Origin: Octopus vulgaris
Taxonomy: Eukaryota
Direction: 5' to 3'
Length of the DNA stretch: 64,000 nucleotides
NCBI GenBank assembly: GCA_951406725.2
Contig: OX597830.1
Span: 78,926,001-78,990,000 of the forward strand
Shown here: positions 12,717 to 59,505 of the stretch, in pieces
How the letters are laid out: the number at the start of each line of letters is the position of its first letter
Numbering within the stretch: the first letter of the stretch is position 1
The notes under the pieces: model-generated
Databases searched by the model: none
What the model was told of the DNA's origin: nothing
The model's input: the letters and a program-made list of their open reading frames with translations, nothing else
Program-made: the position numbers and the translations under genes

Positions 12717-12767
12717 TTTGTCAGTGAACAGGTCGCTGTCTTAAAGCGACGAAAATATTTTGACAAA
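12717..12767 (+). ncRNA. hammerhead ribozyme-like motif, G3-C8 core variant
   Basis: Stem I TTTGTCA/TGACAAA, core GTGAACA+G, stem II GTCGC/GCGAC, GAAA, palindromic stem III AATATT. Confidence 0.6.
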
Positions 12768-13043
12768 TTGAACTTAAATGTTGAAGTGAATCGAACGGCT
12801 TTTGTGTTTCTTAAATGGCTTACAAACACCTTCCACGCTGCAATTGTTATATATATATGCCATGCGCATATATGTATATAGTATGTGTATATATATATTA
12901 CGATGATCCGGTTCTTGACTGAAGATGAGGGTTTTATATGTCCTGTCCGTGTTTATTGTATCGTCTTCTAAGAGTTATACGTTCTTGTCCATGTTGTATT
13001 TTTCACATACCTTATTATATATATATATATATATATATATATA

Positions 13044-13436
13044 CTAGCAGTATCGCCCGGCGTTGCTCGGGTTTGTAAGGGAAATAATTATATAAGCATT
13101 TTTAGAGATGTAAAGTATAATAGCCATCTCAATATGGCTAACCACAAAGGGGGTGGGTGTTACTGTAGCTTTTTACGTTCTGAGATTTAATAATAAATTT
13201 TAGAGAGTTACTTCCCTTATATATGTCAAAAATGGATTAAAAATGGGAAAAATTGATGGTAAATTTTTTTTTAATCGTAGACTCATCGTAGACGCGCGCT
13301 AATACCCAGACGGTCTCGATATGAATCACGACTATAAGATACCCGGTTTTGGTTAAACTGCACCGCAAAATGTGGGAGTAGTTAGGAATCTAAATCGTAG
13401 GAGACAGACACACAACCTCACTTTTATATATAAAGA
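13044..13436 (-). mobile_element. non-autonomous Helitron
   Basis: Minus strand 5'-TC...hairpin CCCGAGCAACGCCGGG...CTAG-3', inserted between A and T. Confidence 0.8.
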
Positions 13437-13732
13437 TTTCCTCTATTTACATAATATTGAGGTCTCTTTCTTTCTTTTGTTATCTTACTGTTTTTACCAA
13501 TATACATATATATATATATATATATAAATATATATATAGTTACAGAGATGTACTTGCATAGCAAGTGACTTGATCTGAGATCTTGTGCTGGAACGAAAAC
13601 AGTTGCAGCGTTGAAGGTGTTTATAAGCCATTTAAGAAACACACAAAAACCGTTAGATTCACTTCAACATTTAAATTTAATTTGTGAAAATATTTTCGTC
13701 GCTTTGAGACCGCGACCTGTTAGCACGATATT

Positions 13733-13783
13733 TTTGTCAGTGAACATGTCGCGGTCTGAAAGCGACGAAAATATTTTGGCAAA
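13733..13783 (+). ncRNA. hammerhead-like motif, G3-C8 variant, second copy
   Basis: Same fold; changes confined to loop II, the extra nucleotide and a G-U wobble in stem I. Confidence 0.55.
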
Positions 13784-14224
13784 TTAAATTTAAATGTTGA
13801 AGTGAATGAAACGGTTTTTGTGTGTTTCTTAAATGGCTTACAAACACCTTCCACGCTGCAATATATATATACACACATATATATATATGTATGTATGTAT
13901 GTATGTGTGTATATGTGTATGCATGTATGTGTGTGTGTGTGCGTGTCTGTGCTTGTGATTGTCCTCCACCACTGCTTGACAACGAATGTTGGTTTGTTTA
14001 CATCCCTGTCACCTAGTGGTTTGACAAAGGAAACAGATAGAATAAGTACAATGCTTACAAAAATAAAACTGGAGTTGATTCATTAAACTACAATTCTTCA
14101 AGGCATTGCCCCAGCATGGCCACAGACCAATGGCTGGAAAAAGCAGAAGAATAAAAGAATACATTCTCTGCTTTGGTCATATGTTGAAGGCATGAGAAAG
14201 CTTGAGTTTACATGAGAAGGCCTA

Positions 14225-14706
14225 ACAGACCTGGTAGAAACAGCAGCCAAATCTCCCTCAAATCACACCTTACTGTCTTATGTATGTATATATATATGAG
14301 CCAATGAGGGGGACCTCTACATGGTAGCTAGACCTGGTAGAAATAGCAGCCAAATTTCCCCCAAATCACACCTTACTGTCTTATCTATGTATATATGTAT
14401 GTATGAGCCTATGAGGGAGACCCCTACATGGCAGCTAGACCTGGTAGAAATAGCAGCCAAATTTCCCCCAAATCACACCTTACTGTCTTATCTATGTATA
14501 TATGTATGTATGAGCCTATGAGGGAGACCCCTACATGGCAGCTAGACCTGGTAGAAATAGCAGCCAAATCTCCCTCAAATCACACCTTACTGTCTTATCT
14601 ATGTATATATGTATGTATGAGCCTATGAGGGAGACCCCTACATGGCAGCTAGACATGGTAGAAATAGCAGCCAAATCTCCCTCAAATCACACCTTACTGT
14701 CTTATC
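14225..14706. repeat. 107-bp tandem repeat, about 4.5 copies
   Basis: Units in register at 14321, 14428, 14535 and 14642; near identical. Confidence 0.95.
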
Positions 14707-56265: not shown

Positions 56266-56362
56266 CTGTAAGAGCGAGCCCCGTGAGTCAGATTAACTGT
56301 TCTAGTGCATCTCCTTTGGGGCAACGCCTTTTCCATTTCGTCAGCTGGGAACAAAAGGGAGT
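56266..56362 (-). CDS. candidate exon of same unknown gene
   Basis: Pyrimidine-rich acceptor ...TTCAG, strong donor CAG|GTAAGC; SLLFPADEMEKALPQRRCTRTVNLTHGARSY; phase 1-2. Confidence 0.6.
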
Positions 56363-57249
56363 CTGAATTACAGGAAACCGAAAGAGTGTAAGAATTTCGT
56401 AGCTTACTACTCGATACACTAATGCACAATTTCTAAGGCGGCGAGCTGACAGAATCGTTAGCGCACCGGGCAAAATGCTTAGCAGCATTTCGTCCATCCT
56501 TACGTTCTGAGTTCAAATTCCGCCAAGGTCGACTTTGCCTTTCAACCTTTCGATAAAATAAAGACCAGTTGAATACTAGGGTCGATGTAATCGACTATTC
56601 CCCTCCCCAGAGTTTCAAGCCTTATGCCTATTGTAGAAAGGACAATTATATATCAAAGGTAAGAGCTGATGCTCAGCAGATATAAAAATAACATCAGAGA
56701 AAAATGAAGTTAAATCCAGAAGTATTTTCTTGCCAAATTCTCTTGTTCTTGTAATGTATTTCTTGTAATTTGTTTTCGTCCCAGTAACCTAGCAGGTCAG
56801 CAAAAGAGACCGATAGAATAAGTGCCATACTTTAAAAACACAAATACTGAGGCTGATTTGTTCGACTAAACACTGCAAGGCAGCAGTCCAATGACGGAGA
56901 CAAGTAAAAAGTAAGAATATATTTAAAAAATTATAATAATATAGGATTCACATTTTGGCACAAGGCCAGCAAAATAATATATCCAGTGCCTAGTTATATA
57001 TATTTTTAGCTTTTGTTTCAGTCGTATATATATATATATATATATATATATATATATATATATATATATATATATATACGACGGGCTTCTTTCAGCTTTC
57101 TGTCAACCAAATCCAATCGCAAAGCTTTGGTCTGCCCAAAGCTATAGTAGAAGACACTTGCCCACGGTGCCACGCAGTGGGACTGAACCCGGTACGTGAT
57201 TGAGAAGCAAGCTTCTTACCACACAGCCACGCCTACACCTATACATATA

Positions 57250-57588
57250 TAAAAGAACCCCTTCGGTCATGAAGGGACATGGGATTGCACCCAGAAAGTT
57301 CTCCTCGGAGGCACAAGTCCGGGCAAGTTTGTTTATGGAAGTCCAGCAATCGCCCATGCATACCAGCTTCCACTTTGTTATCCAAGGATGTTATCCAAGG
57401 GAAAGGCAAAGGGGCCGCTACAGCTCGGCACCTGTGACGTCACAACTCATTTCTACAGCCGAGTGAACTGGAGCAACGGGAAATAAAGTGTCTTGCTCAA
57501 GAACGCAACACACAGCTCGGTCCGGAAATCGAACTCAATACGGCATGATCGTGAGCCTGACGCCCTAACCGCTGAGCCATGCGCCTTC
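57250..57588 (-). mobile_element. tRNA-derived SINE family C
   Basis: GGCGCATGGCTCAGCGGTTAG head, GTTCTTGAGCAAGACACTTT core; second copy 15400-15690 (+). Confidence 0.75.
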
Positions 57589-58355
57589 ACTATACATCTA
57601 TACAAGACAAAATAAATCGAATAAATTTAACAAATTACTGGAAATACCGAAATGGAATATTTTACTCATTTATAATTTTAAGAATAATGTTTTTTGCCAG
57701 AGCTAGTCCTCTTTAAGTCCTGCCAAAGGCGTGTGCTTATTTACACCTACCCACCCCCACTCTCTCTCTCTTTCTCTCTCTCTCTCTCCCCTTCTCTTCC
57801 CCCCTCTCTCCCCCTTCTCTCCCCCCTCTCCCCCCCTTCTCTCCCTCCCTCCCTCTCTCTCTCTCTCTCTCTCTCTCTCTCTCTCTCTCTCTCTCTCTCT
57901 CTCTCTCTCTCTCTCTCTCGTGTGCACTGCTAACAGTCGTTCGTCTGCGCGCGCCCATAGCCTTCGTATAAATGTATGCGCTTGTCTGTGTGCACGCACC
58001 AATAACGTTCGCATGTGTGTGTGTATGTGTGTGCGTGTGTGTGTGTGTGTGTGTGCACGCACCAATGACCTTCGTATATGTGTATGTATGTATGTATGTA
58101 TGTGTGTATGAACGTGTGTGTGTATCTATGTGTGTGCGTGTGTGTTTGTGTGTGTGTGTGTGTGTGTGTGCCAATAACCTTCGTATATATGTGTATACAT
58201 CTGTGTGTGTGTATTTGTGTGTGTTTGTGTTTGTTTGTGTGTGTGTGTGTGCACGCGCTACTAGCGTTCGTATGAATCGCGCTCTCTGCTCTTTCCCTCT
58301 CTCTCTGCTCCCTCCCTCTCTCTTTCTCTCTCTCTTTCTATCTTCCCTTTCGTAC

Positions 58356-58613
58356 TCATATAAACTTTTGCCATTCCCTTGACACAGTGTGACAGATTGT
58401 TTATTCCAGAGGAATTTACCGCCAGTACTTTAATAGACATGACATTATATAACATAATTCCTGTTGCATCAATTATAAATGAGACGTTGAAGAGATTCTT
58501 CAACTGATAACACAGAGTTGTCTCTCGGTTTACGCGATACCCCAGTGAGGACGAGAATACGAACTGAATGATGTTTCTTTCCGGAGATGTCCTGGGGTTG
58601 TAGGTGATCTCAT
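58356..58613 (-). CDS. candidate exon, FN3-like beta-rich extracellular segment
   Basis: 258-nt stop-free unique sequence between microsatellites; [11 protein letters not shown] resembles FN3 strand F; three N-glycosylation sequons; acceptor CAAAG, donor A|GTACGA; phase 1-1. Confidence 0.5.
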
Positions 58614-59026
58614 CTTTGAACCACAAGAGTATACACACACGCACACACACACACATACATACATATATATATATATATAACACACACACACACACACACA
58701 CACACACACACACACACACACATATATATATATATATATATATATATATATATATATATATATATATATATATATATATATATATATATATATATATATA
58801 TATATATATATATATATATATATATATATATATATATATATATATGTTTATATGTATATATGTATATATATATATGTATATATATATATATATGTATGTA
58901 TGTATATACATACACACACATACATATATATATACACACACACATGCACACACATACGTATGTATATACATATATATGTGTATATATATATATATATATA
59001 TATATATATATATATATATATATAAA

Positions 59027-59505
59027 GTTAAATGAAGAAAAGAAAATGGACAGTTAAAAGTTAATAATTATTTATTACTAACAAATTGGTAATTCTTTAC
59101 TTCTTACAACCGTTTCCATTAATACTCAATAATTAAATTACAAATTTGTGCATTAAATTTGCATTAATATGCTACGAGCATAATTTCATCAGAGAAGAAA
59201 AAAATATACCTTAAGATGTTACATGCCGACCTTATCAGTTCATAATAGCAGACTCTATCTACTAGTTTGGTCGCCCTGTGGCTATAGTGGAAGGAGTCTA
59301 CTGGTATGAACTGACAGGTCGACATGTAACATTTTAAGGTATATCCTTTTTTTTCTCTGATGAAATTATGCTCATAGTATACTAACGCAAATTTAATGCA
59401 CAAATTTGTAATTTAATTATTGAGTATTAATGGAAACGGTTGTAAGAAGTAAAAATTACCGATTTGTGAATAATAAATGATTCCCTTTCTACTCTTCGTT
59501 TAACT
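59027..59505. repeat. long inverted repeat (about 220-bp arms) with a hammerhead-like motif in each arm
   Basis: 59027-59256 is the reverse complement of about 59295-59505. Confidence 0.85.
59100..59197 (-). ncRNA. hammerhead-like motif, canonical CUGAUGA core with long stem II
   Basis: CTTCT-CTGATGA...GAAAC-GGTT-GT-A-AGAAG; mirrored at 59352-59449 (+). Confidence 0.5.

Follow-up and report, generated by a model that had tools for sequence, protein, structure and literature searches.

Hammerhead-like motifs with three types of 3:8 core pair in short repeats of Octopus vulgaris

Four families of short repeats, here called A to D, occur in a 64-kb stretch of Octopus vulgaris DNA (the window), and each carries a hammerhead-like motif. 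The 3:8 tertiary pair of the hammerhead core is defined by structure and mutagenesis, and C-G and U-A are known in nature at this place. Why, then, do the octopus families show C-G, U-A and also G-C? We consider it probable (about 0.7) that the motifs are minimal type-I hammerheads in solo or inverted end repeats (pLTRs) of Penelope-like elements (PLEs), whose parents would self-cleave slowly with the assistance of a dimer partner or of protein, keeping the 3:8 pair under selection. Within this reading, the PLE origin is shown for family A, likely for family B and presumed for C and D.

Hammerhead motifs in the window

The letters at the nine places of the original prediction are as described (9/9); the copies at 50749 and 59100 lie on the minus strand, and the numbers cited for them are their low ends. 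The relaxed-core search proposed there was run on both strands of the 64 kb with a type-I descriptor that left positions 3, 6, 7 and 8 free and allowed a loop II of up to 15 nt. It gave seven sites, at 12724 and 13740 (G-C), 25624 and 44058 (U-A), 26800 and 50780 (C-G, with U6) and a weak extra one at 33069, and the 3:8 pair is Watson-Crick in 7/7. In 30 block-wise dinucleotide shuffles the mean was 1.07 sites per window, with 3:8 paired in 11 of 32. When the palindrome, the extra nucleotide and H17 were all required, five sites were observed versus 0.07 in shuffles, by descriptors that were tuned on the window's own motifs. A long-loop descriptor, written post hoc after family D had been seen, found five sites (two each in D and A, and one at 5354) and 0.01 per shuffled window. 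The candidates at 33069 and 16007 are too weak to count.

All four families have a Watson-Crick 3:8 pair together with U4, G5, A9 and G12-A13-A14. They also share a self-complementary stem III, A15.1-U16.1 and H17, the exceptions being G17 in the 44055 copy and G.U pairs in D. A6 is kept in A, B and D and is U in all three copies of family C. The extra nucleotide 9/10.1 and the G10.1-C11.1 pair occur in A, B and C, where D has an A facing a G. The common layout proposed for the four families thus fits A, B and C but poorly describes D, with its long, bulged stem II. As anticipated, a search fixed on CUGANGA misses A (GUGAACA), B (UUGAAAA) and C (CUGUUGA); the literal core is present only in D.

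Repeat families and their parent elements

The family A hammerhead at 12717..12767 (plus strand) has a stem I of 7 bp, its core at 12724-12730 (G3-C8), the extra nucleotide at 12731, a stem II of 5-6 bp, GAAA at 12751-12754, a 6-nt palindrome and U17 at 12760, after which cleavage is predicted. It lies in a direct arm, a solo pLTR (12703..12848, plus strand), with the common 5' edge at about 12703, an ORF ATG at 12815 and a short 3' end 34 nt inside the ORF, followed by (TA)n; these ends, taken from contigs, are loose. The inverted arm (12583..12696, minus strand, ATG at 12674) has a longer tail of 31 codons, of which 28 match P0002, and (TG)n flanks. A second G3-C8 hammerhead (13733..13783, plus strand), with one U-A pair of stem I changed to U.G and U17 at 13776, sits in the direct arm 13730-13862. 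Its inverted arm with tail (13540..13729, minus strand, ATG at 13631, 27/29 to P0002) ends inside the hammerhead core.

Translated, the tail of family A gives the N-terminus of Octopus proteins, through which an ORF with reverse transcriptase (RT) and GIY-YIG can be reached. The window peptide connects to P0002/P0001, which overlap with P0003, and from there to homologues with RT and GIY-YIG motifs. A single ORF with PLE-type RT and C-terminal GIY-YIG is therefore attributed to the family A parent indirectly, through a chain of database proteins of which one is a chimeric gene model. The homologues share about 28-55% identity in best local alignments, with Pfam matches below the cut-off. Family A also has the inverted 5'-truncated arm, the optional tail and the AT or microsatellite target, and microsatellite flanks, inverted arm, tail and target-site duplication agree with published PLE anatomy. 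Judged from sequence, family A is the end repeat of a PLE, and its parent is an element with RT and C-terminal GIY-YIG that is Neptune/Nematis-like by build, the RT tree having been computed without reference Neptune or Nematis sequences. The homologues share the RT, the CxxC-type linker and the C-terminal GIY-YIG with Neptune/Nematis (Craig et al. 2021, PMC8557442), and the inverted 5'-truncated arm, tail and microsatellite targets are likewise similar; unlike in those elements, the DKG motif reads DKSG in the homologues.

Neither an RT nor an endonuclease belonging to these elements lies in the 64-kb window. A Pfam scan of 150 of its 257 ORFs gave no GIY-YIG, and weak Pfam RT matches at 34294 and 34891 were rejected as the element RT because PLE proteins do not match them. 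Viral contigs contained no relative, the ESM Atlas returned a sole match of 0.75 and a PDB search found nothing.

Family B is represented by a minimal hammerhead at 25621..25657 (plus strand) with a stem I of 3 bp, its core at 25624-25630 (U3-A8), a 4-nt palindrome and U17 at 25654, in a direct arm 25615-25754 with its ATG at 25728. The inverted arm with tail (25421..25616, minus strand) has a hammerhead with an 8-nt deletion and an ORF start at 25503 that is homologous to the P0002 N-terminus (pairwise E = 2e-4). The whole insertion (25409..25764, strand '.') is bounded by a 12-bp target-site duplication starting at 25409 and 25753. Family B is thus likely Penelope-type by its tail, a weaker homologue of A's, and the ORF starts of A and B being homologous, the families are not all unrelated, contrary to what had been supposed. 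In the second copy (44055..44091, plus strand), which has an inverted 3' stub (43835-43873) past a (CA)n tract, the predicted UH does not hold: position 17 (44088) is G, and this copy is likely impaired.

The family C hammerhead at 26796..26831 (plus strand) combines C3-G8 with A6U, a 4-nt palindrome and A17. A divergent subfamily copy (50749..50784, minus strand) begins at stem I and adjoins (TA)n, the copy at 16432..16467 (plus strand) has a core broken by U4A, confirming the mutation noted before, and a 3'-end fragment (24192..24251, minus strand) adjoins TA repeats. The motif is more conserved than the downstream flank in two of three pairwise comparisons (P 0.014, 0.009, 0.74). The family D motif (59352..59449, plus strand) has the canonical core at 59357-59363, an 8-nt wobble palindrome and A17 at 59444. 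Its stem II, about 10 bp long and bulged, encloses some 45 nt of inserted sequence, with an A opposite a G where G10.1-C11.1 belongs. Together with an inverted partner (59100..59197, minus strand) it forms one head-to-head insertion with arms about 91% identical.

In C and D no ORF start could be connected with PLE proteins, and for these families the predicted Penelope-type origin is less firmly based than for A and B. Animals have non-LTR retrozymes with type-I hammerheads, and C and D (possibly B) could be retrozyme-like or SINE-like repeats instead. We regard this as very improbable: PLEs are known for inverted pairs, for TA-repeat targets and for the extra nucleotide, the tail of B matches a PLE N-terminus, and no tandem head-to-tail array covers any motif at these loci. 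The copies are solo or head-to-head, so a head-to-tail dimer in one RNA is impossible from them; the window copies are probably inert by-products.

The 3:8 pair across homologous elements

Fifteen homologous loci were taken from metagenomes, and the motif was found by scan in five and by eye in one. The scanned motifs have C-G (L001, L006, L010) or U-A (L002, L004), and the one found by eye (L003) has U-A with G5U. No motif could be scored in the other nine, most of which are without the pLTR; in L007 the contig start cuts the core. The hammerheads of related elements sit where A's does, the core-to-ATG distance being 91 (A), 104 (B), about 102 (L001) and about 93 nt (L004). P0003 (family A), L001 and L002 form one 100/99 clade in the tree, which brings G-C, C-G and U-A together.

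A nine-row alignment has 3:8 paired in 9/9 with three pair types, and 89.5% pairing over the whole structure versus 30-53% when slid; its rows were picked and trimmed after parsing, and three of 12 (C1, C2, L004) were dropped for misalignment. The four families alone give weak support to the predicted covariation (P = 0.083, permuting position-8 letters), but adding the homologues strengthens it: among ORF-linked lineages 3:8 is paired in 8/8 (permutation P = 0.004, kinship not corrected). Other core changes in the group are A6U (C), A9C (L002), G5U (L003) and U15.1-A16.1 (L001), which are expected to slow or stop cleavage.

Could hairpins and GAAA in AT-rich repeats resemble hammerheads by chance, with 3:8 complementary by luck? 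The P value of the four families, the tuning of the descriptors on these motifs and the Rfam results, with no hammerhead among the matches listed for the window (150 of 260), at family A or in six related loci, are what such a coincidence would have in its favor. The Rfam negative is uninformative, however, because the canonical-core motif of L006 is missed by Rfam too. With the five strict sites versus 0.07 expected, and with homologous elements carrying the motif equally far from their ORF start, luck is hardly credible and, for A and B, largely refuted.

A candidate natural G3-C8 hammerhead

Several of these features are not new: the class of motif, the extra nucleotide, the inverted pairs and U3-A8 have all been in print since 2014. 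Cervera and de la Pena 2014 (PMC4209133) described the extra nucleotide, the palindromic stem III and opposite-strand pairs, and accepted as a member a U3-A8 family with about 1,300 matches; the core of the Schistosoma mansoni U3-A8 family, UUGAAAA, is that of family B. Their minimal hammerheads in metazoan PLE pLTRs are also type I, with a short stem I, one nucleotide 9/10.1 and UH, and resemble ours in the palindromic stem III, solo copies, opposite-strand pairs and, in A, B and C, G10.1-C11.1. Unlike them, A has G3-C8, C has A6U, and D has a long stem II insert and no G10.1-C11.1; four G3-C8 core strings are absent from one supplement file of that paper. Perreault et al. 2011 (PMC3088659) also report natural 3:8 covariation, with changes at A6 and 15.1-16.1 tolerated but slow; section 8 has U3-A8 and A6C only, and G3-C8 and A6U are absent there. 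In vitro, a full scan of double mutants shows rescue by the G-C swap (PMC9901934). We found no published report of a natural G3-C8 hammerhead, and an animal family of high copy number with G3-C8 as its natural consensus may be new.

Family A itself shows little variation at the motif. No variant of at least 2% was listed in the core (12717-12733) in three runs with 5,118-11,653 contigs per run, stem II variants are CpG transitions only, and pairing survives the single other variant at a paired site. Change at 3:8 leaves the pair intact, as a selected hammerhead fold predicts, but the change is between families, and no covariation was found inside family A in the contigs of the three runs. Polymorphic sites are not significantly rarer in the constrained motif (1/42) than in the flank (5/95, P = 0.67); loop II alone stands out (3/9 sites variable, P = 0.015). 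Depth ratios indicate 3-5 x 10^4 copies, an indicative figure only, depth being no copy number. RNAfold pairs G3 with U17, extending stem I, as a competing state, and folding as a dimer (-22.8 kcal/mol) brings hardly any gain in stability over two monomers (-22.2). Depth rises downstream of the cut site in runs X4 and X7 and not in X3; we discarded this rise as a cleavage signal, since AT-rich bins elsewhere rise alike and contigs cannot show RNA ends.

The motif might instead be a hammerhead-derived fold kept without a cleavage role. Near the 5' end of the RNA it could act structurally, as a promoter or in protein binding, with 3:8 serving folding. The catalytic G8/N8 ribose owes its position to the 3:8 pair, and the retention of 3:8, GAAA, U16.1-H17 and the palindrome is therefore best explained by an active fold; slow cleavage of dimers is known for minimal PLE hammerheads. 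The several catalytic-core changes among related elements, the family A copies in contigs that start upstream of the uncut motif, and the anole PLE, whose in vitro insertion is unaffected by hammerhead mutants and which shows no RNA ends at the cut site, point the other way. On balance we find a fold without cleavage unlikely, and the family A G3-C8 motif is likely a natural hammerhead variant that still works.

For the slowly self-cleaving parents that we favor, the green anole element Poseidon (Frangieh et al. 2024, PMC11167929) offers a model: its RT initiates internally at two sites, giving the short end and the tail, its hammerhead is protein-assisted, and the engineered C3G/G8C swap partly rescues activity. 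In Poseidon the natural core, C3-G8, overlaps with the start codon, whereas 91-104 nt separate the octopus core from the ATG downstream of it, and the octopus tail of about 58 nt is unlike Poseidon's. We hypothesize that transcription of the octopus element begins a short way upstream of the hammerhead and that the element protein nicks AT-rich or microsatellite DNA. Reverse transcription would begin at one of two sites, 34 or 92 nt into the ORF, as in the anole element, and copying to the RNA 5' end would leave a copy of 150-210 bp with the hammerhead uncut, often with an inverted partner. Within the clade, the 3:8 pair would have switched among C-G, U-A and G-C with complementarity kept. More tentatively, and somewhat short of even odds, the octopus may harbor an abundant family with an active G3-C8 hammerhead, the first in animals, in a clade that switched 3:8 at least three times and sampled slowing core changes.

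These findings change nothing in what is known about the biology of this class of elements. A high-copy family fixed for G-C, in a clade that also uses C-G and U-A, is natural evidence of selection for an active PLE hammerhead fold, and bears on whether PLE ribozymes do anything for their element. Annotators should leave positions 3, 6 and 8 free in hammerhead searches. If G3-C8 is indeed active, whole families would be missing from the hammerhead counts of animal genomes, and some PLE groups called hammerhead-less may hide hammerheads with swapped cores.

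Hammerhead motifs and their setting

Every motif cited for the four short repeat families (A at 12717 and 13733; B at 25621 and 44055; C at 26796, 50749 and 16432; D at 59100 and 59352) was found in the window. A relaxed descriptor that left core positions 3, 6, 7 and 8 unconstrained returned 7 sites in 64 kb, each with a Watson-Crick 3:8 pair, compared with 1.07 sites per shuffled window, where the pair formed in 11 of 32; strict criteria of the type seen in Penelope-like elements (PLEs) gave 5 sites versus 0.07 in shuffles. The core carries G3-C8 in family A, U3-A8 in family B and C3-G8 with U6 in family C. 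The original prediction held that the 3:8 pair is kept in every family, and all four are indeed paired, but the four families alone are weak evidence (P = 0.083). The common layout that it described stood for families A, B and C; family D conforms only under a looser one, having a long bulged stem II with ~45 nt inserted and an A facing G at its base. A post hoc long-loop descriptor found 5 sites (0.01 per shuffled window): those of families D and A, plus one new at 5354. This hammerhead-like motif (5350-5425, + strand), with one copy in the window, has a canonical C3-G8 core, G10.1-C11.1, a 41-nt loop II, an 8-nt palindrome and C17. The family B copy at 44055 has G17, and the family C copy at 16432 bears the U4A core change, as had been noted. 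Weak single candidates lie at 33066-33108 (+), in a dehydrogenase intron, and at 16002-16050 (+).

Families A, B and D form head-to-head inverted pairs adjoining microsatellites. The inverted arm of A and B reaches ~55-60 nt farther at the 3' end, and a 12-bp target-site duplication flanks one family B insertion. This arrangement in A and B matches the inverted, 5'-truncated copy plus tail (the longer 3' extension into the ORF start) of PLEs in the available part of Craig et al. (PMC8557442). In family A, an ATG lies 91 nt past the core, with the copies extending into that frame for 34 or 92 nt. Both direct copies of family B keep a GTRAGT splice-donor-like site (25694 and 44129, +), ~40 nt past the predicted cut site and ahead of the ATG; 5' introns are known in PLEs. 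Just 5' of stem I in family C lie a branch-point-like motif and a pyrimidine tract (26745-26795 and 16380-16431, +), which recall the Drosophila Penelope intron, whose end lies at helix I.

The window is microsatellite-rich animal DNA with a GC content of 38%. Its matches among database proteins come from Octopus species, which makes an octopus the most likely source. It also contains 3-hydroxyisobutyrate dehydrogenase exons (32404-42230, +; Pfam NAD_binding_2 and NAD_binding_11), tRNA genes in duplicated blocks (2047-2119, 11001-11073, 3709-3802, 9393-9486 and 21155-21247, all -), some with a 23-nt anticodon-loop insert, and pieces of additional mobile elements, namely a LINE-like reverse transcriptase (RT; 34294-35501, +), a restriction-like endonuclease-type ORF identified by eye (40104-40460, -) and a transposase-like helix-turn-helix ORF (62085-62897, +).

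Parent elements and covariation of the 3:8 pair

The 31-codon tail peptide of family A matched a single protein among 1.8 billion, P0001 of O. bimaculoides, and agrees at 28 of 31 positions with P0002 of O. sinensis, a chimeric gene model in which a methyltransferase domain is fused to a PLE N-terminus. P0003 of O. vulgaris is overlapped by both and terminates in RT motifs, which are named PLE-type here after Craig et al. (PMC8557442) and general background. The N-terminus matched by family A also aligns with the tail peptide of family B (pairwise E 2e-4), so the two elements are likely related. An ORF link to PLE proteins was looked for in families C and D, and none was found.

An alignment of 23 homologous proteins brought up 14 loci from metagenomes, along with one contig from a genome bin. 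A motif scan of these loci anchored on G5 and GAA (score of at least 15; null 0.3 per shuffled set) gave 7 sites, with C3-G8 in L001, L006 and L010 and U3-A8 in L002 and L004 (two sites). A site in L014, unpaired at 3:8 and on the strand opposite the ORF, was taken as chance. By eye, L003 has U3-A8 with G5U (291); the core changes in related hammerheads also include U15.1-A16.1 in L001 (4973) and A9C in L002 (2497). The motifs of the homologous loci all lie outside the ORF, at the position of the PLE end repeat, ~102 nt before the start codon in L001 and ~93 nt in L004. L015 is a 2.7-kb contig with a PLE ORF that was binned with a bacterial genome and is probably eukaryotic contamination.

The tree places P0003 (family A) together with L001 and L002 in a clade (support 100/99) that includes all three pair types, G-C, C-G and U-A. 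The pair is present in 8 of 8 ORF-linked lineages (permutation P = 0.004, uncorrected for kinship) and in 12 of 12 when the unlinked window motifs are included (P = 0.0002, likewise uncorrected). It is also found in all rows of a 9-row alignment, made without three rows misaligned by MAFFT, in which the stems covary. A covariance model from this alignment with the 3:8 pair omitted, which still favours U3 and A8, also picked up a decayed U3-A8 motif in two places (1302-1349 and 10212-10259, -), with A13C and adjoining (CAC)n. Both copies sit within a duplicated unit bearing tRNA genes. In L007 (1-40), a hammerhead is interrupted by the contig start but retains G8; the 3' strand of its stem I equals the family A 7-mer, and the L007 ORF falls within family A's clade.

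Variation within family A

Contigs from three runs aligned to 12583-12850 at 80% likeness numbered 11,653, 5,118 and 7,992; a fourth run contributed none. Across the core-spanning positions 12717-12733, no variant occurred among the best 40 of 41 variant rows from these contigs; G3 and C8 are therefore the family A consensus, with no C3-G8 subfamily of at least 2% among the aligned contigs. Stem II variants are CpG transitions (~2-6%), and the sole other paired-site variant, at 12763 (9-16%), changes U-A to U.G. Non-CpG variants concentrate in loop II (3 of 9 sites versus 1 of 42, P = 0.015), but across the motif as a whole variability was no lower than in the flank (P = 0.67, at low power). 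Among the loose ends listed, the best-supported 5' ones are at 12703 and 12716, both 5' of the uncut motif; ends at the predicted cut site may occur beyond those listed. Family A is abundant, with thousands of contigs, and its copy number is perhaps in the tens of thousands, an indicative figure only.

A known system and a core variant

The window motifs are real and belong to a known system. Lunse et al. 2017 reportedly contains many short-stem-III variants. The extra nucleotide, the palindrome, opposite-strand pairs and U3-A8 are already published in the portion of Cervera 2014 (PMC4209133) consulted, and for engineered G3-C8, activity or partial activity is described in excerpts of two papers (PMC9901934; PMC11167929). 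No natural G3-C8 or A6U PLE hammerhead was found in the searched literature; Lunse et al. 2017, Przybilski and Hammann 2007, Hammann et al. 2012 and the Cervera 2014 figures and one supplement file were outside that search.

The mechanism that we propose starts from four observations: the repeat anatomy, the ORF link of family A, its consensus and the covariation across elements. By analogy with the anole element (PMC11167929, in part), the two 3' ends of the copies would arise from internal RT initiation, the template would be uncut RNA and cleavage would depend on the element's protein; the consulted part of Cervera 2014 (PMC4209133) suggests that cleavage would be slow and in dimer form. 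Each window copy stands alone or has its partner on the other strand and therefore cannot form a dimer within one RNA; the copies are probably inert. Position 17 influences a G3-C8 variant in the available text of Kalweit and Hammann (PMC3884650). In family A this position is U, not C, which avoids the Watson-Crick G3-C17 trap; a G3.U17 wobble is still predicted. We conclude that one natural core variant, G3-C8, is probably unreported so far, a predicted ribozyme with good comparative support.
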